From: Candidatus Bathyarchaeum sp.
GTDB lineage: Archaea; Thermoproteota; Bathyarchaeia; Bathyarchaeales; Bathyarchaeaceae
DNA length: 41,900 nt
Direction: 5' to 3'
NCBI GenBank assembly: GCA_026014495.1
Contig: JAOZIF010000165.1
Coordinates: forward strand, 1 to 41,900
The position numbers were made by a program, and so were the translations under genes. The first letter of the stretch is position 1. The number at the start of each line of letters is the position of its first letter. The notes beneath the pieces were generated by a model that was not told the DNA's origin, did no database searches, and saw only the letters and a list, made by a program, of their open reading frames with translations. This document shows, piece by piece, positions 5,396 to 15,208 of the stretch.

Positions 5396-6511
5396 GTGAA
5401 AAGAACAGGGGTTACAAACCTTCCACTCCATTACGGTAAAGCGCCAAGATGGCTTGTTTTTAGAATGCAAAAACTAGCCAAAGAAATGGTGACCATAATG
5501 GTGGACGAGTATGGCGTGGACATGTTCTTGCGGCGCGTTTCTGATCCCTTGTGGTTTCAGGCTTTGGGTTGCGTTTTGGGTTACGATTGGCATTCCTCTG
5601 GTGTGACTACTGTTTTAACGGGGGTTCTAAAGATCGCAGTAAACTCAACAGAGGTTGGTTTAACTGTTTGTGGCGGAAAAGGAAAGACCTCCCGTAAAAC
5701 TCCTGCAGAAATTGACCTTCTGGGCGAAAAATATGGCTTCTCCTCAAACAAACTTGATGGGTTATTATATGCTAGTAAAATGAGCGCCAAAGTCGACACA
5801 ACTGCCGTTCAAGCAGGTTATCCCCTTTATCATCATGCCTTTTTTGTCACCGAACATGGAGAATGGGCTGTAGTTCAGCAAGGACTAAACACCGAGAACC
5901 GCTCAGCACGGAGATACCATTGGCTGTCTGAGAACGTTAAAGATTTTGTTGTTGAACCGCACGATGCCGTAGTTGGAGACATAAAACATGATGTTGTGTT
6001 AGACATGACTGCACAGGCAAGTGAAGGCTGCAGAAAAACCTCTACTGACATCATCAACGAGAACCCAAAAAAGTTGAGAAAAACTCTGTTTTCTATTCGT
6101 CCCACAAATCAAAAATCTTTGCAGGAGTGGATTCCATCGCCTCTGGAAAAAAATTATGCGGTCGATGCTTTTTCTTTACCACGTAACCTTGATTGGAAAG
6201 CAGTTAAACGAGCATACGATTTTCAGCCCAAAAATTACGAAGAATTACTGGGTATCAAAGGCGTAGGTCCTGCAACTGTCCGTGCTTTAGCTTTGGTTTC
6301 CGAGTTGGTTCACGGCGAGAAGCCATGCTGGGATGACCCTATCAAATACAGTTTTTGTGTGGGTGGAAAAGATGGGGTTCCTTATCCTGTGGACAGGGCA
6401 ACTTATGATGAAACGATTGAAATTTTGGAGAATGCTGTGAAGCAGGCTAAGGTTGGTGGTAAGGAGAAACTTAATGCAGTGAAACGGCTTCGTGTTCTTG
6501 CTGCTAGGTGA
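5396..6511 (+). CDS. DUF763 domain-containing protein
   Basis: LPLHYGKAP, YDWHSSGVTT, KVDTTAVQAGY, HhH-like GIKGVGPATVRAL, GGKDGVPYPV. Confidence 0.85.
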   Translation: MKRTGVTNLPLHYGKAPRWLVFRMQKLAKEMVTIMVDEYGVDMFLRRVSDPLWFQALGCVLGYDWHSSGVTTVLTGVLKIAVNSTEVGLTVCGGKGKTSRKTPAEIDLLGEKYGFSSNKLDGLLYASKMSAKVDTTAVQAGYPLYHHAFFVTEHGEWAVVQQGLNTENRSARRYHWLSENVKDFVVEPHDAVVGDIKHDVVLDMTAQASEGCRKTSTDIINENPKKLRKTLFSIRPTNQKSLQEWIPSPLEKNYAVDAFSLPRNLDWKAVKRAYDFQPKNYEELLGIKGVGPATVRALALVSELVHGEKPCWDDPIKYSFCVGGKDGVPYPVDRATYDETIEILENAVKQAKVGGKEKLNAVKRLRVLAAR

Positions 6512-6595
6512 TGTTAACTGTTTTTTGGGATTGTTTATGTTTTAATTCAATTTTAACATGAATGGTTAAAAACTTCTTATATCTTAAGTCTTGTA

Positions 6596-6844
6596 TTGCA
6601 ATATGATGTAAGTGTGCCAACAATGCCGAAAAAAGCTCATATCACAGTGAACTTGTTGCCCGAAGCATCAAAATCAACAACAACTCAAATCAAAGGCAGA
6701 ATACGAAACAATGCAAAAATCCCCTTATGCAAAGAAATAGAGGCCATAACAATAGAAGATATTGACGCATCCTATGAGAACTTGAAAAAACACGGCATTT
6801 CCAGCAACGTAGCACGAAACCTCATGGATTTGTACACCGAGTAA
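6596..6844 (+). CDS. Small hypothetical protein
   Basis: 82-aa ORF filling an intergenic gap; start could be ATG 6623. Confidence 0.5.
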   Translation: MQYDVSVPTMPKKAHITVNLLPEASKSTTTQIKGRIRNNAKIPLCKEIEAITIEDIDASYENLKKHGISSNVARNLMDLYTE

Positions 6845-6916
6845 CAAAAAACATTGCCAAACAGTGTAGCACCCAAAAATCTGAAACCCTAAACTTGAAT
6901 CACTAACTTTCGTAAG

Positions 6917-7462
6917 TTACGATATTTTTTCGCGCACTTGTGTGGTCACATCCAATTCAGCAAACATCTCCCTTTTCGCTTTACATATTGGACAAACATA
7001 AGGTGGGTCTTCGCGGAAACATACATAGCCGCATTGTTTGCAGTACCACAATTTTGTTTGTATTTCAGGCGTTTTCTTTATTGCTGTTTTTGCACTTTCG
7101 GCTGTTTGTTCAGTGGAAATTGTGTATGCTCTGCCTTGTTTTTCTAGGGGTCTTCTTTCTGGAATGGGTTTTGCAGACTTTTTTTTGTCATAAATCTCTT
7201 TTGTGACGTATAACCCGCAGTAACATTGTCCATAATCGTTTACATCGGGGTCTCTGTAGTCACATGGGCAGATTATATCTCTGTCCAGTTCCAGCTTTCC
7301 TGAAGCTAATCTACATGGGCACGAAGGGTAGCCATAGCGTTGTTCGTTTTTGTGCAGTCCTTCAAGCAGGTCTTTGAGAAGCTCTTGGTCGGATGCTAGA
7401 TAATATCCGTTGGTTTTTGCGTCATTTTCTGCTCGTTTTCTTGTGTTTTCTATTGTTGTCAA
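6917..7462 (-). CDS. Ferredoxin:thioredoxin/disulfide reductase catalytic subunit fused to a rubredoxin-like domain
   Basis: CPC, CPC and CYC motifs, followed by WYCKQCGY...PYVCPICKA. Confidence 0.9.
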   Translation of the reverse strand: MTTIENTRKRAENDAKTNGYYLASDQELLKDLLEGLHKNEQRYGYPSCPCRLASGKLELDRDIICPCDYRDPDVNDYGQCYCGLYVTKEIYDKKKSAKPIPERRPLEKQGRAYTISTEQTAESAKTAIKKTPEIQTKLWYCKQCGYVCFREDPPYVCPICKAKREMFAELDVTTQVREKIS

Positions 7463-7743
7463 AGCTCCAAAACCTCTCTTAGTTTGTCTTGTGGTGCACC
7501 AGTCAACAGAATCTTGTTGTCTATGATTACGGTTGGATATGCAAGTGGTCCTCCACGGGTTTGGATGTCTTGCCTAATTTTGTTTCTATCTTCACTGCTA
7601 CAAAGGTCGACGTCAATGTATTCGTATTCAATCTCATTCTCGTTCAAGAATTTCTTGGCACGTTTGCACCAGCCACATGTGCTTATTGCGTACAAGAGAA
7701 CGTGGTGCTTGTTGTTTTTTCCCGCAACTTTTACGGTTTGCAT
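7459..7743 (-). CDS. Glutaredoxin/NrdH-like redoxin
   Basis: STCGWCKRAK active site, cis-Pro YPTVII; 4-bp overlap with the FTR gene. Confidence 0.9.
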   Translation of the reverse strand: MQTVKVAGKNNKHHVLLYAISTCGWCKRAKKFLNENEIEYEYIDVDLCSSEDRNKIRQDIQTRGGPLAYPTVIIDNKILLTGAPQDKLREVLEL

Positions 7744-7848
7744 CTATATCTCCCCTTTTTACTGTTACTTTTGCGATTTGATAAAAATTAACTAATAATT
7801 GTAAATGCTATTGTTCCTCATTAAGGTATCACAAAAGACAGACAACAG

Positions 7849-8865
7849 CTATATCAAGTTCATGTGATCCGAAGGCTTGCTCCCAAGCAGCAACCTGTAG
7901 TGGTCACTTTTTCCTTTTTGTTGAATTCTTTCAAGTTTACCGTGTGCAATCACGTTTTCACCACTTTTTGCGTGTTCACAAAATCTTCCTCGAAATGACA
8001 CGATCTCCTCAATTGGCTCAACTTTTGGTCCTTCAAGAGTTTCCACATTGGTGAGCTTGTATGTGCATGGCGTGAAGAGTGATTCTGAAGCGTCTGCAAC
8101 TGTGGCTTTTATTGTTGCGTTGCCTTGTGGATTGTAGATGATGCTGCCGTATTGTTCACTGATTTCGTTGTGGTCTTTTACGAAGCGGATGAAGAAGTGT
8201 TTTCCCATAAATTTGCCGTGTGAGATTTTTCGGGAGTCGGTTCGAACGAAATCTTCGAAAGATACGTTGGTGTCCTTCGAACGAAAATCGAACAGCTCTT
8301 TTAGTCCTTGTATGTCGTACGCTTCAAATGGGCTGTTTTTGTCTTTTAGCAGATTTTTCATGGTTTCTGCTACTTTGTATCCTGTCTTGGACCCGTAAAC
8401 GACTAGGTCAATGTCTGATGAGGGCTCCTGAAGATTAACTAAAATAGAGCCTGAAACGCCCAGTTTGCTCCATTCTACACCCGATTTTTCTTGGAGGACT
8501 TGCATGAACCGTAACGCCGCTGTTTCTGCTTCATCTAATTTGGTTTTAGCTCGCAGGTCTTGTATTCCCTGTGCTGGCTGATAGTGATGTTTTATGTCCT
8601 CTACTGGAACTTCACAGAGCAAAGTGTTGAAGACAGGGTCATCTACTAAGTATTGTGGGTATTCTCGTTTTAGCAGGTCGTAGCGTTTGGCGAGTGCATA
8701 GTATTTGCTGTAATGTTTTCCGTCTCTTTCTCGGTTGCCGTTTGGGTCTGGAACATAACGGATGAAAGCCACCACACGGTCTGGAGGATGAACTACTCCT
8801 TTAACATCAAAAACTATGTTATCTTTTGTTTCTATGAGGTCGCCTTCTCTAAATTTTGTGCCCAT
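7849..8865 (-). CDS. Predicted nucleotidyltransferase (COG1665-like)
   Basis: Pol-beta-type motif GVSGSILV...SSDIDLVVYG. Confidence 0.75.
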   Translation of the reverse strand: MGTKFREGDLIETKDNIVFDVKGVVHPPDRVVAFIRYVPDPNGNRERDGKHYSKYYALAKRYDLLKREYPQYLVDDPVFNTLLCEVPVEDIKHHYQPAQGIQDLRAKTKLDEAETAALRFMQVLQEKSGVEWSKLGVSGSILVNLQEPSSDIDLVVYGSKTGYKVAETMKNLLKDKNSPFEAYDIQGLKELFDFRSKDTNVSFEDFVRTDSRKISHGKFMGKHFFIRFVKDHNEISEQYGSIIYNPQGNATIKATVADASESLFTPCTYKLTNVETLEGPKVEPIEEIVSFRGRFCEHAKSGENVIAHGKLERIQQKGKSDHYRLLLGSKPSDHMNLI

Positions 8866-8890
8866 TTTGTAGCCTTCTTTTTTGTGGGTG

Positions 8891-10839: not shown

Positions 10840-10965
10840 ATGTTGGGCCTGTTAGTTTTTGTAGTGTCTTTCCTTTGTCTTTTCATTGGAACTATACTGT
10901 TTCCCAGCATGCCGCCTGGGCAACTACTATGTGACGTTTTCGGAAACTCGATACTGTTAAGTTAA
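10840..10965 (+). pseudogene. 5' fragment of a small membrane-protein gene truncated by the transposon left end
   Basis: ATG 10840: MLGLLVFVVSFLCLFIGTILFPSMPPGQLLCDVFGN, running into the left TIR, where it stops (TAA 10963-10965). Confidence 0.5.
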
Positions 10966-10972
10966 GTTACCT
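10950..10972 (+). repeat. Left terminal inverted repeat
   Basis: GATACTGTTAAGTTAAGTTACCT; starts like IS6-family ends (IS26 GGCACTGTT). Confidence 0.9.
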
Positions 10973-10984
10973 AAAAAACTAGTT

Positions 10985-12187
10985 TCAAGTCAGTGTTTTT
11001 TGGCAGGTTCCACTTTTGAATCTCTTGATTCTCTGTATGTGAGTCTTTTCAACATACTTCTTTTCAGCTAAATATTCAGGTAAATCCATGTGTTTTATTA
11101 CACCTCTAAGATTTAGTGCTTCCCAAGCCAACTGTTCATTATTAATTAGCGCCTCACACCGTTGTAGCTTGGACTTGGACGAGAACGAATCCAAAAACTT
11201 TTGCCACGAAATACACGAATTGTCTTTTGGATACATGTCAGCTATTCTTTCAGTACCAACAACTCTATAATAACCATAGTCATTACGGTTAAAAAGACGC
11301 AATTTTCTTTCTTCAGTCTCAGGGGTTGGACCTAAACCAATTCCACCAACATCAAATTTTGGACGTTTATGCTTTTTTCCCAATCCATCAAAACCAAACC
11401 CGAAAGAAAAAATGTTTTTTGAAGTCACAGCTTCCCTTTTTTTGGATAACCGACCTGCACTTACATTATAAGCGTAAAGAAATGTGTTATCCAAAACTCT
11501 TTCTTGAACTAATAATTTGAAAACATCGAGGAGGTCAGCCTCCATTGTGATGGGGTTCCTTGCAGCGAAATCATAATAAAAAGCGTTAATTTCGTTCTTT
11601 AGATAGAATAAAATTAATTCATTTGTGTACTGGTATGGTAGTTTTGGTATCGCCCCCATAACAGGTTTACCATTATACCTCCGTAGATATTCCAAAGTAG
11701 CAGAAATAAATTTGAGATATTTCTGGAATTTTGCATCAGAATTTATCCCATCAGTAATTAAGGGAATGTTTGGTATTGGTACGATACTTGAATTGGCATG
11801 TGCTCTATTTAGAATAAACTGCCAAATAGTATCGGATGGATACCTTTGTATAATGCATTCAAAAATACAAATATCAAACTCATGTTGTGAGCTATTATTT
11901 GATTTAGGCTTTTGTGCGCGTATTCTTCTTTCAAAAGCTTGTTTTACGGTCATATCCTTAACGAGCTTATTGAGCGGTCTGTTTTTGTTACTTATTTCAC
12001 AATAAATTTCGTTAAGCCCTCGTGTGCCTGAGGCTACATTTTCATTGCTGTTAATGAGTTTGTTATTATATGCCACAATAGGTGTTTTTATGGAAAAATC
12101 ACTAGCAATACGAAGACTTTTAGTTGAGTATAATGTTTCATCGTTTTTGTCTTTTTCAAGCAGTTTAACTTCTAGTCTAGTCATCAT
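10985..12187 (-). CDS. Hypothetical protein, probable tRNA-guanine transglycosylase (TGT)-like TIM barrel
   Basis: N-terminal SIKTPIVAY resembles TGT IETP; C-terminal LINNEQLAWEALNLRGVIK resembles TGT HNL...IREAI; no DSGG or CxCxxC motif. Confidence 0.5.
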   Translation of the reverse strand: MMTRLEVKLLEKDKNDETLYSTKSLRIASDFSIKTPIVAYNNKLINSNENVASGTRGLNEIYCEISNKNRPLNKLVKDMTVKQAFERRIRAQKPKSNNSSQHEFDICIFECIIQRYPSDTIWQFILNRAHANSSIVPIPNIPLITDGINSDAKFQKYLKFISATLEYLRRYNGKPVMGAIPKLPYQYTNELILFYLKNEINAFYYDFAARNPITMEADLLDVFKLLVQERVLDNTFLYAYNVSAGRLSKKREAVTSKNIFSFGFGFDGLGKKHKRPKFDVGGIGLGPTPETEERKLRLFNRNDYGYYRVVGTERIADMYPKDNSCISWQKFLDSFSSKSKLQRCEALINNEQLAWEALNLRGVIKHMDLPEYLAEKKYVEKTHIQRIKRFKSGTCQKTLT

Positions 12188-12197
12188 TTGCCCCTAT

Positions 12198-12680
12198 TTA
12201 TTTTGAACATCTGAATGTTGATTTGTTAAGTTTATTCAAAAGCTTTTCCTTGATTAATTGGTCTATTATGCCCAAATGATTCATTAGATTCAATAAACCT
12301 TCAGTGCCTGTTTTCTTTAATCCTAGTTTGTCTGCTACTCTTCTTCCTGCACCTTCATCAATCACACATTCAAAAGGTTGATTTTGTTTTTTTAACTCTA
12401 AAGCATACTGTAATACTTCAACTTCACCATAGTCGAGCATTGGATAAAGTTCTTTAAATGTATCAAATTCTTTTTTCGATACTTGTTTAGTAATAATCCA
12501 TTTTTCATCTATCGCTTTAGCGAGTCTAGATTTTCCCGGTTCTTTTTTTACCTCAAATGCAACACCATCAGTTACAATAAGTGAATAACCAATCAAAGTA
12601 AGGGCATACAAGTACTCCCCATCATCCATCTCCGTCATAAAACCAATAATCGTTGAGGCATCCAAAATAAGCGAAGTCAT
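12198..12680 (-). CDS. PIN-domain toxin (DUF3368/COG2405-like)
   Basis: LILDAS, VAFE, LDYGEVE, VIDEGAGRRVADKLGLKKTGTEGLL; acidic PIN residues retained. Confidence 0.8.
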   Translation of the reverse strand: MTSLILDASTIIGFMTEMDDGEYLYALTLIGYSLIVTDGVAFEVKKEPGKSRLAKAIDEKWIITKQVSKKEFDTFKELYPMLDYGEVEVLQYALELKKQNQPFECVIDEGAGRRVADKLGLKKTGTEGLLNLMNHLGIIDQLIKEKLLNKLNKSTFRCSK

Positions 12681-12686
12681 TCCACA

Positions 12687-13271
12687 TCACTCAGCGAAAA
12701 CGGAGACACCCTTTGATTGTAATAACGCGATTACATCTTCTTGATATAACCCAGAAATTTCAGCAGCTTTCCCAAGACTTATTTTCTTTTTTTTGAACAA
12801 ATTAACAGCGACTTCTTGTCTCTTTGTTTCTATTCTCTTGAACTCTAACGAGTCATCTCGCATGTCTGGGTATGAGTAATAAATGAACCCTAACAACTCA
12901 TCTTTTGTCAAGTCATTCAGAAACAACTTCATTTCTGAAATCGAGTTCATTTTAGAAGTAAATTCTATCTCCAATTTTTTTGCGATTTTTTTCCCATATT
13001 TTGTAAGTTGTTTTTGTTTCGGGTCAACAATCTTTTCTATACGTAGTCTATCAGTCTGCTCATCAGCTAATTCACTATATGGCCCCATAAAATCGGATTC
13101 AAACTCAGCCTCTTCTGCTAAGTCAGGCAATATTTTTGAAATAAGGAACAACTCTTTTTGATACCATAATTTGCCTTTTATAGGTTCCAAATTATTTGCA
13201 GCATAGAGAAGAATGGTTATTTTTTGTGTTAATGATAGGCGTTTCTCTATGTTATTGCTCGTCTTCGACAC
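12687..13271 (-). CDS. Antitoxin-like fusion: SocA/Panacea(DUF4065)-like N-domain plus UPF0175 HTH
   Basis: GKLWYQKELFLI...FESDFMGPYS; C-terminal AVNLFKKKKISLGKAAEISG. Confidence 0.7.
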   Translation of the reverse strand: MSKTSNNIEKRLSLTQKITILLYAANNLEPIKGKLWYQKELFLISKILPDLAEEAEFESDFMGPYSELADEQTDRLRIEKIVDPKQKQLTKYGKKIAKKLEIEFTSKMNSISEMKLFLNDLTKDELLGFIYYSYPDMRDDSLEFKRIETKRQEVAVNLFKKKKISLGKAAEISGLYQEDVIALLQSKGVSVFAE

Positions 13272-13422
13272 TCTCCTCAGTCACAGGTTCAAGCAAGATA
13301 ACCTTAACTTGCTTATGTATCCACGCTTTTGGCAAGTATATCCTTCCCGTCGTACCTGACACGGCAACTCTCCTTTCTAATACTTGATAACCTGAAACTT
13401 TAACTTCCATTTCGGCATTCAT
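13252..13422 (-). CDS. DUF2080-family transposon-associated small protein (AbrB-like), not in ORF track
   Basis: MNAEMEVKVSGYQVLERRVAVSGTTGRIYLPKAWIHKQVKVILLEPVTEESVEDEQ; alternative start 13410; overlaps the start of the antitoxin gene. Confidence 0.8.
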   Translation of the reverse strand: MNAEMEVKVSGYQVLERRVAVSGTTGRIYLPKAWIHKQVKVILLEPVTEESVEDEQ

Positions 13423-13547
13423 AATAATAGCTATATTATAGCTTATTTATATCTTTTTTTAATTATTTTATGGCTATTTTATAGCTAATAAACGTAAGGT
13501 ATATATACTTGGGTATCCTAAAGGATACCTGTAAGAGCGTGAAAGAA
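13423..13547. promoter_or_regulatory. Divergent promoter region with two TATA boxes and three palindromes
   Basis: Minus-strand AAAAAAAG-ATATAAAT at about 13445-13460; plus-strand GTATATATAC at 13499-13508; GCTAT-N3-ATAGC at 13430-13442 and 13473-13485; GGTATCCT-AA-AGGATACC at 13512-13529. Confidence 0.7.
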
Positions 13548-14456
13548 ATGAACTGCAAATATTGTGACTCTGAGAACATAATCAAGAAAGGAGTCAGACA
13601 TAACAAGCAAACTTACAAGTGTAAAGACTGTGGTCACATTTTTGTTGCTAACGGCAAATTTTCAAGAATGCGAAACGACAAGCACATCATAGTTACAGCT
13701 CTTAATCTCTACTATGACGGCTTATCTCTCCGAAAAACACAACGCAACTTAGAACAGATTTTTGGAGAGAAAATATCTCAAGTCACAATATTGAACTGGA
13801 TTAAGAAGTATTCACGACTTGTAAAAGAATACATGATTTCTCAGGTACCACAACTTTCAGGATTATGGCACGAAGATGAAACAGTAATCAAGTGTGAAGG
13901 AAGAAACGTTTGGTTCTGGGAAATGATAGATGAAGATACAAAATTTATGGTTGCTTCTCACCTATCTAACACAAGAACGTTTAATGATACAGTAGCCATC
14001 TTCAAGAAGGGATTTGAGCAGAGCAAGGTTCGACCTAAAGCGGTTTTTGTCGATGGCTGCAACGCTTACTATCGAGCGTTCAACAAAGTGTTCTACACCC
14101 TCCGAAAAGATACTCGCCCAGAGCTAGTGCAAAGAGTTGGAGTAAGAACTAGAGAAACAAACAACATAGTTGAAAGACTGCATGGTACACTTAAAGATAG
14201 AACAAAGCCAATGCGAGGACTCAAGAATTATGAATCCACAAAACTACTGCTTGAAGGATACTCAGTCCACTACAATTGTGTTAGACCGCACCAAAGTCTA
14301 GGCGGTAAAACTCCCGCTCAAGCTACAAGAATGAACGTTCCAAACAATTGGAAAGGCTTAATTGATGAAGCAACGAAACATGAAGCAATTCTATTAGCTA
14401 AAGTGTTCGGTGAAAAAACGGAAGAAAAACAGGGAATAAAGGTGGTCAGTAAATGA
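13548..14456 (+). CDS. IS6-family DDE transposase with N-terminal zinc ribbon
   Basis: CKYC...CKDC, HTH, WHEDET / VFVDG / NNIVER catalytic triad, HYNCVRPHQSLGGKTPA. ATG 13548 is preferred to TTG 13509, which lies just after the TATA box. Confidence 0.9.
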   Translation: MNCKYCDSENIIKKGVRHNKQTYKCKDCGHIFVANGKFSRMRNDKHIIVTALNLYYDGLSLRKTQRNLEQIFGEKISQVTILNWIKKYSRLVKEYMISQVPQLSGLWHEDETVIKCEGRNVWFWEMIDEDTKFMVASHLSNTRTFNDTVAIFKKGFEQSKVRPKAVFVDGCNAYYRAFNKVFYTLRKDTRPELVQRVGVRTRETNNIVERLHGTLKDRTKPMRGLKNYESTKLLLEGYSVHYNCVRPHQSLGGKTPAQATRMNVPNNWKGLIDEATKHEAILLAKVFGEKTEEKQGIKVVSK

Positions 14457-14620
14457 AAAAAATCTTAGTAGCTCTACCAAAGGGTGTAATTGACATTTTA
14501 GACAAAGAAGTTGTTGGCAAACTAGGCGAAGGTTATAGTGACACATTACGCACAATTATTATGAATTGGTTAGGCGAACAGGGTTACTTATCAAAAGGTG
14601 GAAAAAGTGAAAAAATCTAA
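14453..14620 (+). CDS. Ribbon-helix-helix (CopG-like) protein, 55 aa, not in ORF track
   Basis: MKKILVALPKGVIDILDKEVVGKLGEGYSDTLRTIIMNWL...; ATGA overlap with the transposase stop. Confidence 0.75.
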   Translation: MKKILVALPKGVIDILDKEVVGKLGEGYSDTLRTIIMNWLGEQGYLSKGGKSEKI

Positions 14621-14759
14621 AGTTGACAGAGAACCAACCGAAGAAATAGACCTTTTAGATGATATGCTCTCAAGTCTAGTTGACTTGCTTATTGAGAAAG
14701 GCGTTATTACAGAAGAAGAATATGAGAAGCGAATTAAGCAACGAGTTAAAATAAAATAA
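14607..14759 (+). CDS. Small acidic protein with SHOCT-like motif, 50 aa, not in ORF track
   Basis: GTG start after GGTGG RBS; LVDLLIEKGVITEEEYEKRI. Confidence 0.65.
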   Translation: MKKSKVDREPTEEIDLLDDMLSSLVDLLIEKGVITEEEYEKRIKQRVKIK

Positions 14760-14764
14760 ATTTT

Positions 14765-14959
14765 CTAATTTTTCTCTTTTCCCAAATATATTAACAACAT
14801 TGCCAATAACCCAAGAATAGTTATTTGAATTGAATAACTCAGCACTTGGTAGTTAACGCAAAAATAAATGAACAAAAGTAAGTCAATAAAGGCGATAATT
14901 AACCCAGCTGTGAATAATATCCAATTCATAGTAACCAATAATTTTGAAGCAAAAGACAT
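14765..14959 (-). CDS. Small two-TM membrane protein (passenger gene)
   Basis: 64 aa with two hydrophobic segments; starts 16 bp inside the right TIR. Confidence 0.55.
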   Translation of the reverse strand: MSFASKLLVTMNWILFTAGLIIAFIDLLLFIYFCVNYQVLSYSIQITILGLLAMLLIYLGKEKN

Positions 14960-14975
14960 ATCTTAAATTTTCGGC

Positions 14976-14998
14976 AGGTAACTTAACTTAACAGTATC
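14976..14998 (-). repeat. Right terminal inverted repeat
   Basis: AGGTAACTTAACTTAACAGTATC, the exact reverse complement of 10950-10972. Confidence 0.9.
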
Positions 14999-15208
14999 GT
15001 AGTGGACGATAAAATATATGCAATTGGAGGCCAACAAGGTACTGCTCAAACCCCAACGAAATACTGCAACACAAACGAAGTTTACACTCCAACGGGTTAC
15101 ATTCCAGAGCTTTCTTCTTGGTTAGCTCTTCCCTTGGTTATAACAGGTGTATTGGTTGCTGTTTTAGTTAAGAAAAAGTTACAAAAAACTGCTTGTACAA
15201 GAGATTAA
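14999..15208 (+). pseudogene. 3' remnant of a Kelch-repeat surface protein with a PEF-CTERM-like tail
   Basis: VVDDKIYAIGG...NTNEVYTP (Kelch repeat), IPEL, TM segment, KKK; begins exactly at the TIR junction. Confidence 0.75.

Follow-up and report, generated by a model that had tools for sequence, protein, structure and literature searches.

What would an archaeal genome do with a protein that has the fold of a tRNA-guanine transglycosylase (TGT) along its whole length and has kept neither the Zn site nor the general acid/base motif of those enzymes? The question is raised by a gene in a 41,900-nucleotide stretch of DNA from Candidatus Bathyarchaeum sp. (positions 1 to 41,900 of the forward strand of contig JAOZIF010000165.1, assembly GCA_026014495.1), the whole of which we call the window, and the product of this gene is referred to below as the TGT-fold protein:

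10985 to 12187, minus strand: TGT-fold protein, 400 amino acids, from an archaeal family without a name; proposed to be an enzyme effector or second toxin

A conserved antitoxin-toxin cassette on a transposon includes this gene as its third member, a context that the preliminary description of this DNA, made from the letters alone, had overlooked. The gene probably supplies a mobile toxin-antitoxin (TA) or defense module with a new enzyme component. That the protein is a TGT-derived enzyme in a three-part module of this kind, acting as a second effector held by a Panacea-like head of the antitoxin, is a reading to which we give about an even chance. Of its elements, the fold, family size, gene linkage, toxin exchange, and transposon borders come directly from the analysis, and binding by the antitoxin is predicted by a model.

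A transglycosylase fold in an unnamed archaeal family

The AlphaFold2 model of the TGT-fold protein, built on 31 relatives, has a mean predicted local distance difference test score (pLDDT) of 83.6 and a predicted template-modeling score (pTM) of 0.86, with a single disordered loop at residues 275–292, and an independent model in the ESM Atlas reaches a pTM of 0.88, its nearest annotated cluster being DUF5591+TGT. The best 50 Foldseek matches in the PDB are all TGTs, with E values of about 1e-6 and TM-scores of 0.47–0.58. In VIA-align, residues 2–392 of the model align with mouse QTRT1 (7b2i_C) at Z 22.8 (325 residues aligned, root mean square deviation 3.8), and the Z score to ArcTGT of Pyrococcus (1iq8_A) is 21.8. 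A structure search independent of Foldseek gives Z scores of 21.8 for ArcTGT, 20.9 for bacterial TGT, 20.0 for QTRT2, 16.3 for Cap10, and 14.8 for DpdA, while unrelated TIM barrels reach at most 11.8 and no nuclease barrel is found among the 50 matches listed. What is shared with the TGTs is the whole-length architecture of a (β/α)8 barrel, an N-terminal sheet, and a C-terminal helical subdomain.

The preliminary description had proposed a divergent barrel related to TGT and DpdA, to be given up if the predicted structure proved not to be a TGT-like TIM barrel, and had named AlphaFold and Foldseek comparisons as the way to find out. The prediction is a TGT-like barrel (Z 21.8–22.8), and the model is closer to ArcTGT and QTRT2 than to DpdA. 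The structural part of the proposal stands, and the protein is nearer in its predicted structure to the tRNA enzymes (Z 21.8–22.8) than to DpdA (Z 14.8). The functions that the description had suggested, a base-excision or base-exchange enzyme or a sensor of modified nucleic acids, are possible ones.

The similarity of the termini to those of TGTs, from which that description had started, is also borne out. An hhalign comparison with 30 ArcTGTs and the Escherichia coli TGT is collinear over 312 columns at a probability of 15%, running from FE..D...TP to the C-terminal HNL...I.EG helix, and the structural alignment extends over residues 2–392. The profile alignment pairs the N-terminal FE..D...TP and the SDI that precedes strand 4 with their TGT counterparts, K-P-I-M-G-x-I-P with the QGG strand of TGTs, and the C-terminal N-x-E-Q helix with the HNL helix.

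The open reading frame (ORF) of 400 amino acids is intact, as had been reported, and the label of orphan is wrong. A word-indexed search finds 33 close clusters, and an exhaustive HMMER search at E ≤ 0.001 finds 260 clusters (50% identity) from many archaeal lineages, of which 156 have E values below 1e-10. Among species-level genomes, the hosts include Bathyarchaeia, Methanoperedens/ANME-2, other Methanosarcinales, and Nanoarchaeota/Woesearchaeota, as well as Nitrosopumilus, Nitrososphaeraceae, Wolframiiraptor, and Culexarchaeum. Matches on two contigs labeled as bacterial, Terriglobia and Cloacimonadota, were not accepted as evidence for bacterial hosts since both are short contigs of metagenome-assembled genomes. 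The family is basic, with a median isoelectric point (pI) of 9.0, and its distribution is patchy and mobile, the gene being present in 15 of the 301 genomes and 12 of the 122 genera of a phylum sample. We considered whether the gene could be the housekeeping ArcTGT and rejected this, because the genome encodes a separate, canonical ArcTGT on contig C73. Searches with the TGT-fold protein and its family profiles gave no match in Pfam, NCBIfam, PADLOC, PHROGs, or PDB sequences, and none of 118 family members has a Pfam match. A large archaeal family that forms a Pfam-invisible branch of the TGT superfamily and is tied to an antitoxin across Archaea is new.

Some other frames in the genomes searched also touch the TGT profiles. 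ORFs of 305–313 amino acids (G035:C1:1818883-1819365 and G019:C1:574719-575198) weakly match the middle of the TGT profile (113–272) and may be another diverged TGT-like group. Open frames of 609–685 amino acids (G023:C4:13579-13839, G031:C42:46758-47015, and G031:C11:59318-59572) each weakly match its C-terminal part and each hold a single in-frame TAG, which could reflect read-through or a recoded codon, or broken genes.

A third gene beside an antitoxin and an exchangeable toxin

Two further genes and a small ORF on the same strand lie upstream of the TGT-fold gene:

12198 to 12680, minus strand: DUF3368/COG2405 PIN-like toxin, 160 amino acids; PADLOC PDC-S70 match, E 6.8e-18; 10 nt upstream of the TGT-fold gene
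12687 to 13271, minus strand: two-domain antitoxin, 194 amino acids; acidic Panacea-like N-domain (about residues 1–145) and basic UPF0175 helix-turn-helix (HTH) domain (149–192)
13252 to 13422, minus strand: small ORF, 56 amino acids, heading the leftward operon; overlaps the antitoxin start by 20 nt

The antitoxin matches UPF0175 at 41.9 bits (cut-off 27.9) and stands directly upstream of the COG2405/DUF3368 PIN gene, the arrangement of a UPF0175-DUF3368 TA pair; combinations of UPF0175 and COG2405 are frequent in archaea and are predicted to be type II systems (PMC2701414, PMC5499597). The genes are tightly packed, with 6 nt between the antitoxin and PIN genes and 10 nt between the PIN and TGT-fold genes. 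The PIN protein of the window scores 18.8 bits against Pfam DUF3368, below the cut-off; orthologues at other loci carry PF11848, and residues E43, E86, and D108 are conserved in 26–28 of 28 homologues. The 56-amino-acid ORF has a weak match, below the cut-off, to DUF2080, a "putative transposon-encoded protein" (E 0.009).

The triad of TGT-fold protein, antitoxin, and PIN toxin recurs around relatives with 49%, 42%, and 40% identity in unrelated flanks. Across 32 loci from species-representative genomes, the long UPF0175 antitoxin adjoins the TGT-fold gene in 29, with two of the three exceptions truncated where the contig stops, and 26 of the loci contain the PIN toxin. Three gene orders occur, both co-directional and divergent (UPF>PIN>TGTL, PIN<UPF< >TGTL, and TGTL>UPF>PIN, where TGTL is the TGT-fold gene), so the linkage is not mere inherited synteny. 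The triad is found as well in basal members of the family tree (P0057 and P0089) and on a viral contig from IMG/VR, and in the 301-genome sample every full-length match to the TGT-fold protein has a match to the antitoxin N-domain within about 1 kb.

Simple gene loss was considered for three loci that lack the PIN toxin, and is rejected there because a ParE/RelE toxin (PF05016, 31.9–44.4 bits, above the cut-off) fills the slot (L064:4499-4822, L065:4568-4879, and L068:4545-4853). The antitoxin at these loci carries an extra C-terminal tail of about 40 amino acids, and its N-domain and the TGT-fold gene are unchanged. An exchange of toxin in which the N-domain is kept implies that the exchangeable toxin is matched by the C-terminal half of the antitoxin, and the TGT-fold protein by the N-domain.

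The distant members P0134, P0157, and P0173 have another partner, a conserved convergent gene of 152–160 amino acids (L072:1742-2197, L073:5217-5696, and L076:4359-4820) that occupies the place of antitoxin and PIN, starts 4–17 nt past the TGT-fold stop codon, belongs to no Pfam family, and encodes a C-terminal CPxC...HER...C Zn-ribbon. At L073, the TGT-fold gene sits between AAA_15/AAA_21/AAA_23 ATPase genes (L073:1994-3829 and 5864-8872) and beside a DUF499 protein, surroundings that look like a defense island.

The head of the antitoxin and its predicted contact

The AlphaFold2 model of the antitoxin (pLDDT 93.8) shows a helical N-domain with a small hairpin, and the two parts of the protein differ in charge, with a pI of 5.4 for the N-domain and 9.5 for the HTH domain. 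All 24 homologues match UPF0175, and 5 of the 24 weakly match SocA_Panacea (best E 0.0021); the window antitoxin itself has no match to SocA_Panacea (PF13274) at E ≤ 1, and no homologue reaches the Pfam threshold. In the PDB, DarG from the DarTG toxin-antitoxin complex (7yk3) is the best and only notable fold match of the N-domain (Foldseek probability 0.97, with a weak E of 0.065), and the two can also be related by profile (E 0.0076). On these weak matches, we call the N-domain Panacea-like, its membership of the family not being established.

The N-domain is more widespread than the TGT-fold family, occurring in 37 of the 301 genomes as opposed to 15, and most of its 60 places are without a TGT-fold gene. 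Elsewhere, it adjoins other proteins, for example an AAA ATPase or a 386-amino-acid protein beside a DNA methylase, which suggests that this long type of antitoxin serves other modules too. For a promiscuous antitoxin domain, pairing with many partners is expected (PMC8832971). One such locus (L078:3005-6028) has a close homologue of the long antitoxin (E 1e-58), then the 386-amino-acid protein, then an N6_N4 DNA methylase. The 386-amino-acid protein was examined as a hidden member of the TGT-fold family and rejected, at an hhalign probability of 0.7%.

Complex prediction for the TGT-fold protein and the antitoxin gave a score of 0.62 (runs of 0.62, 0.73, and 0.01), and the best of 3 controls scored 0.00; 58 of 80 solved complexes attain that mark, as do 2 of 110 mismatched pairs, a rough calibration given that we supplied the alignments ourselves. 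At least 37% of the contacts are common to the runs, and the pLDDT of the partner is at least 85. On the side of the TGT-fold protein, the predicted interface consists of the loops after strands β4–β8 (residues 149, 182–185, 210–221, 245–250, 288, and 291), including the conserved basic residues R210, R246, and K249. TGTs bind their substrates at the barrel face that bears the loops after the strands. On the antitoxin side, residues 8–16, 53–80, and 139–142 are involved, with the conserved acidic residues E53, E56, E58, E67, and E71. The model supports a contact between the acidic N-domain and the barrel's catalytic face, and a basic family paired with an acidic N-domain would fit an acidic lid over an active face that binds nucleic acid.

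The predicted contact would suit an accessory protein equally well. If the TGT-fold protein were a non-catalytic sensor or stabilizer, it could bind the Panacea-like domain and time the release of the PIN or ParE toxin, for example on a phage or nucleic-acid cue. Such a role would agree with the complete antitoxin-toxin pair that the module already contains and with the absence of the Zn site and DSGG motif. It would also agree with the lack, in the window copy, of two Asp residues conserved in the family, and with the fit of QTRT2 to the model, which is nearly as good as that of the catalytic enzymes (Z 20.0). Comparable partners are QTRT2, a non-catalytic TGT paralogue, and the SecB chaperone, the third partner of toxin-antitoxin-chaperone systems. 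A sensory role has also been proposed for Panacea in multidomain antitoxins (PMC10440598). The polar conservation across 148 sequences is, however, strong and more typical of an enzyme, and in the distant subclade the TGT-fold protein occurs with a small Zn-ribbon partner and has no classical toxin to regulate. We consider an accessory role, the main rival to the reading as a second effector, rather unlikely on balance.

Conserved residues and the chemistry they allow

If the TGT-fold protein is an enzyme, its active site must differ from that of known TGTs. The preliminary description had noted that DSGG and CxCxxC are missing, and this is true not only of the window protein but of all 148 family members compared: CxCxxC, or even CxxC, is found in 0 of 148, as against CxCxxC in 28 of 31 control TGTs, and the general acid/base motif D[ST]GG is likewise found in 0 of 148. 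Position 110, at the end of the strand matching β3, is Glu in 48 and Asp in 13 of the 148. The profile alignment, which is of low confidence here, places the guanine-reading Asp of TGTs opposite a hydrophobic or Asn residue at position 140 and offers no conserved counterpart to it.

What the family does conserve is a different polar set, made up of E60, D134, D206, N241, D258, D267, H273, R297, N349, E351, E356, and K376. In 148 sequences, down to about 22% identity, E60 is kept in 146, N241 in all 148, D206 in 136 (the other 12 having Asn), D267 in 131, and H273 in 137. The three patches that the preliminary description had picked out by eye as conserved-looking rank with the family's most strongly conserved blocks (around D206; G265/D267/G270/H273; R297/F299/Y304/Y306).

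None of the three Asp residues shared without exception by TGT and DpdA, in DpdA the defining Asp95, Asp130, and Asp256 (PMC10164549), has a secure equivalent in the sequence of the TGT-fold protein. The order of elements in the model is β6 (202–206), α6, β7 (236–242), α7, β8 (268–271), a loop, and a hairpin (296–309). D267 lies in an FD[SC] motif in 40 of 148 members, whereas the profile alignment puts N300 (Asn in 86, Asp in 30) at the position of the TGT nucleophile; an hhalign run on the β6–β8 segment alone yields only a 26-column match, which is meaningless. As the counterpart of the nucleophile, D267 is favored by the order of secondary structure and by the FD[SC] motif.

A conserved set of this kind could also serve other chemistry, and an effector that uses the barrel as, for instance, a phosphodiesterase or nuclease dependent on metal, like Endo IV or TatD, has to be weighed. 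E60, D206, N241, D267, and H273 could bind metal, the TGT catalytic set is not conserved, and the one distant member among AAA_15/AAA_21 ATPase genes and DUF499 has neighbors typical of defense islands. Yet the fold match is specific to TGTs and takes in their N-terminal sheet and C-terminal helical subdomain (Z 20–22.8), what follows the TGT relatives among the 50 matches listed (Z ≤ 11.8) holds no nuclease barrel, and no metal-site motif was identified. Non-glycosyl chemistry is in our view very improbable.

Comparison with known systems

The TGTs themselves (ArcTGT 1iq8, bacterial TGT, and QTRT1; PF01702) resemble the TGT-fold protein in whole-length fold (Z 21–23 over about 320 residues) and, in the profile alignment, in a collinear TP after the N-terminal sheet, SDI before β4, and N..E in the C-terminal helix. 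They differ in PF01702, CxCxxC, D-S-G, and, by the low-confidence profile alignment, the guanine-reading Asp, none of which is conserved in a family that is patchy and mobile. QTRT2 (6fv5) has the TGT fold, has lost the catalytic residues, and works through protein contact (Z 20.0 to the TGT-fold protein), but it pairs with a catalytic TGT paralogue, whereas here an antitoxin is the predicted partner and the family conserves polar residues of its own.

DpdA, which inserts preQ0 into DNA (7ui4), and Cap10 of the type IV cyclic oligonucleotide-based antiphage signaling system (CBASS; 9ntn) are likewise TGT relatives in conflict systems, DpdA having been recruited to conflict (PMC10164549) and Cap10 likewise (10.1101/2025.04.06.647259). 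Both keep the base-reading and catalytic Asp residues of TGTs, both act together with 7-deazaguanine enzymes (DpdB/DpdC, or Cap9 with a CD-NTase, a cGAS/DncV-like nucleotidyltransferase), and both are structurally farther from the TGT-fold protein (Z 14.8 for DpdA and 16.3 for Cap10, 9ntn_B) than the tRNA enzymes are. No DpdB ATPase or preQ0 synthesis gene was found in the window or the related loci inspected, and no CD-NTase or QueC-like Cap9 in the neighborhoods examined, so that the module is neither a DpdA-type system nor a type IV CBASS operon.

These comparisons bear on the possibility that the protein is a working transglycosylase of the TGT or DpdA kind, which would insert a modified base in tRNA, or in the DNA of the element or host for self-marking, and would not be a toxin. 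The whole-length TGT fold, the basic pI, the F-D-[SC] motif that makes D267 a candidate nucleophile in 40 of 148 members, and the defense relatives DpdA (PMC10164549) and Cap10 (10.1101/2025.04.06.647259) could all be cited for it. It is hard to reconcile, though, with neighborhoods in which inspection found no genes for 7-deazaguanine synthesis, DpdB-like ATPase, QueC-like gene, or CD-NTase, or with the missing Zn site, the missing D-S-G general acid motif, and a guanine-reading Asp that lacks a conserved counterpart in the low-confidence profile alignment. In addition, DpdA and Cap10 fit worse than the tRNA enzymes, and the constant partner of the TGT-fold gene is an antitoxin, not a biosynthetic enzyme. 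We think it quite unlikely that the protein is such an enzyme.

The closest match to the other two genes is the UPF0175-DUF3368 (COG2886-COG2405) pair, with the same two families in the window and most related loci and the antitoxin first. The usual UPF0175 antitoxin is small, however, whereas that of the cassette has an extra N-domain of about 145 amino acids and is accompanied by a third gene. Three-component variants of COG2405 consist of an HTH protein with a DUF955 protease and include no TGT-fold protein (PMC5499597). Panacea (DUF4065) in PanAT systems is likewise a folded antitoxin domain with many unrelated partners; the matches to SocA_Panacea here are weak, and the binding is predicted. 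A text search of the Panacea paper for transglycosylases turned up no TGT-fold partner, and the literature searched gives no account of a TGT-like protein paired with UPF0175/DUF3368 or Panacea antitoxins, or of the TGT-fold family itself.

The IS6-type element that carries the cassette

The cassette and a transposase are enclosed in an element of 4,051 bp (10949–14999) that is bounded by perfect 24-bp inverted repeats:

10949 to 10972, no strand: left terminal inverted repeat, 24 bp, perfect (100% complementary); 12 nt past the stop codon of the TGT-fold gene
13509 to 14456, plus strand: IS6-family DDE transposase, 315 amino acids; PF13610 DDE_Tnp_IS240 (E 2.7e-21) and rve_3 (E 5e-11); divergent from the cassette
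14976 to 14999, no strand: right terminal inverted repeat, 24 bp, perfect

These two repeats are the only copies of the 24-bp sequence in the genome, and the element has a GC content of 0.34–0.36 compared with about 0.40–0.44 in its flanks. Members of the IS6 family normally carry a transposase only, and passenger genes are unusual. The passengers here are the three-gene cassette and four small ORFs, namely the 56-amino-acid upstream ORF and three others. A related element in another Bathyarchaeota genome (L042, 1253–7233) has repeats with an identical first 16 nt and encloses a transposase of the same family, the cassette, and additionally a GmrSD restriction gene. In that element, the TGT-fold gene abuts the inverted repeat, as it does in the window, and a 51-amino-acid ORF takes the place equivalent to that of the 56-amino-acid ORF.

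TA modules are reportedly known as cargo of Tn3-family transposons, where a TA module likewise lies within inverted repeats beside a transposase. Unlike that cargo, the present module travels with an IS6/IS240-type transposase, in an archaeal host, and has three genes. Just outside the element, window positions 7849–8865 encode a 338-amino-acid protein with weak matches only, to NTP_transf_2/Polbeta nucleotidyltransferases.

A proposed mode of action and the points against it

Putting these features together, the TGT-fold protein would be a diverged member of the TGT superfamily that was recruited into a mobile, three-gene, TA-like module. The antitoxin would be two-headed: its basic UPF0175 HTH would pair with the classical toxin (the DUF3368 PIN nuclease in the window, ParE/RelE in one clade) and probably repress the operon, and its acidic Panacea-like N-domain would hold the TGT-fold protein. 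The latter, as we infer its toxicity, substrate, and chemistry, would be a basic enzyme directed at nucleic acid, most likely acting on a base or sugar of tRNA or of other RNA or DNA, at the C-terminal face of the barrel where E60, D206, N241, D267, and H273 are conserved, and having lost both the Zn subdomain and the residues with which true TGTs read guanine. At rest, the enzyme would be blocked by the N-domain of the antitoxin, seated on this C-terminal face. If the antitoxin were lost or displaced, through loss of the element, stress, or infection, then the PIN nuclease and the TGT-fold enzyme would both be freed. In the window, the module would be cargo of the IS6-type transposon with an addiction or defense function.

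Several observations weigh against this two-effector proposal. Since the module already includes a canonical toxin, the TGT-fold protein need not be toxic. Its proposed role as a toxin draws, indirectly, on the linkage to the antitoxin and on a complex model that passes its controls, one of the three runs of which scored 0.01. The distant subclade (P0134, P0157, and P0173) is without antitoxin and PIN. Sequence-level homology to TGTs is marginal (hhalign probability 15%; 0 of 118 family members matching PF01702 at E ≤ 1), and the mapping of active-site residues is uncertain for that reason, with D267, G270, or N300 as residues that could correspond to the nucleophile. The window copy and its nearest relatives have Ser at position 134 and Asn at 258, where Asp occurs in 85% and 92% of the family, respectively, and to judge from these substitutions, the subclade of the window copy may have an altered or weakened activity.

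A more far-reaching version of the two-effector proposal, which we put forward tentatively and think somewhat unlikely to hold in full, would make the family the first TA or defense effector on the TGT fold. A remodeled, Zn-free site would remove or swap bases in tRNA, rRNA, or DNA and would be restrained by the Panacea-like head of an antitoxin that controls PIN or ParE through its other part, an arrangement of "one antitoxin, two toxins" spread across Archaea by IS6-type transposons and viruses.

Implications for the TGT superfamily and for archaeal defense

TA and defense systems have been poorly explored in Archaea, and the module would be a clear example of an antitoxin with two heads whose second toxin is exchangeable, as well as of defense or addiction cargo on an archaeal IS6-type transposon. 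Its parts are small, single-domain proteins that are directly testable. The known activities of TGT-fold enzymes are tRNA modification and, in more recent work, DNA modification by DpdA and protein-nucleobase conjugation in CBASS by Cap10. If the two-effector proposal is true, the TGT-fold family would be a fourth branch of TGTs, one that is Zn-free, invisible to Pfam, coupled to an antitoxin, and spread over many archaeal phyla, and it would widen the chemistry of the superfamily and lengthen the list of folds used by TA and defense effectors.

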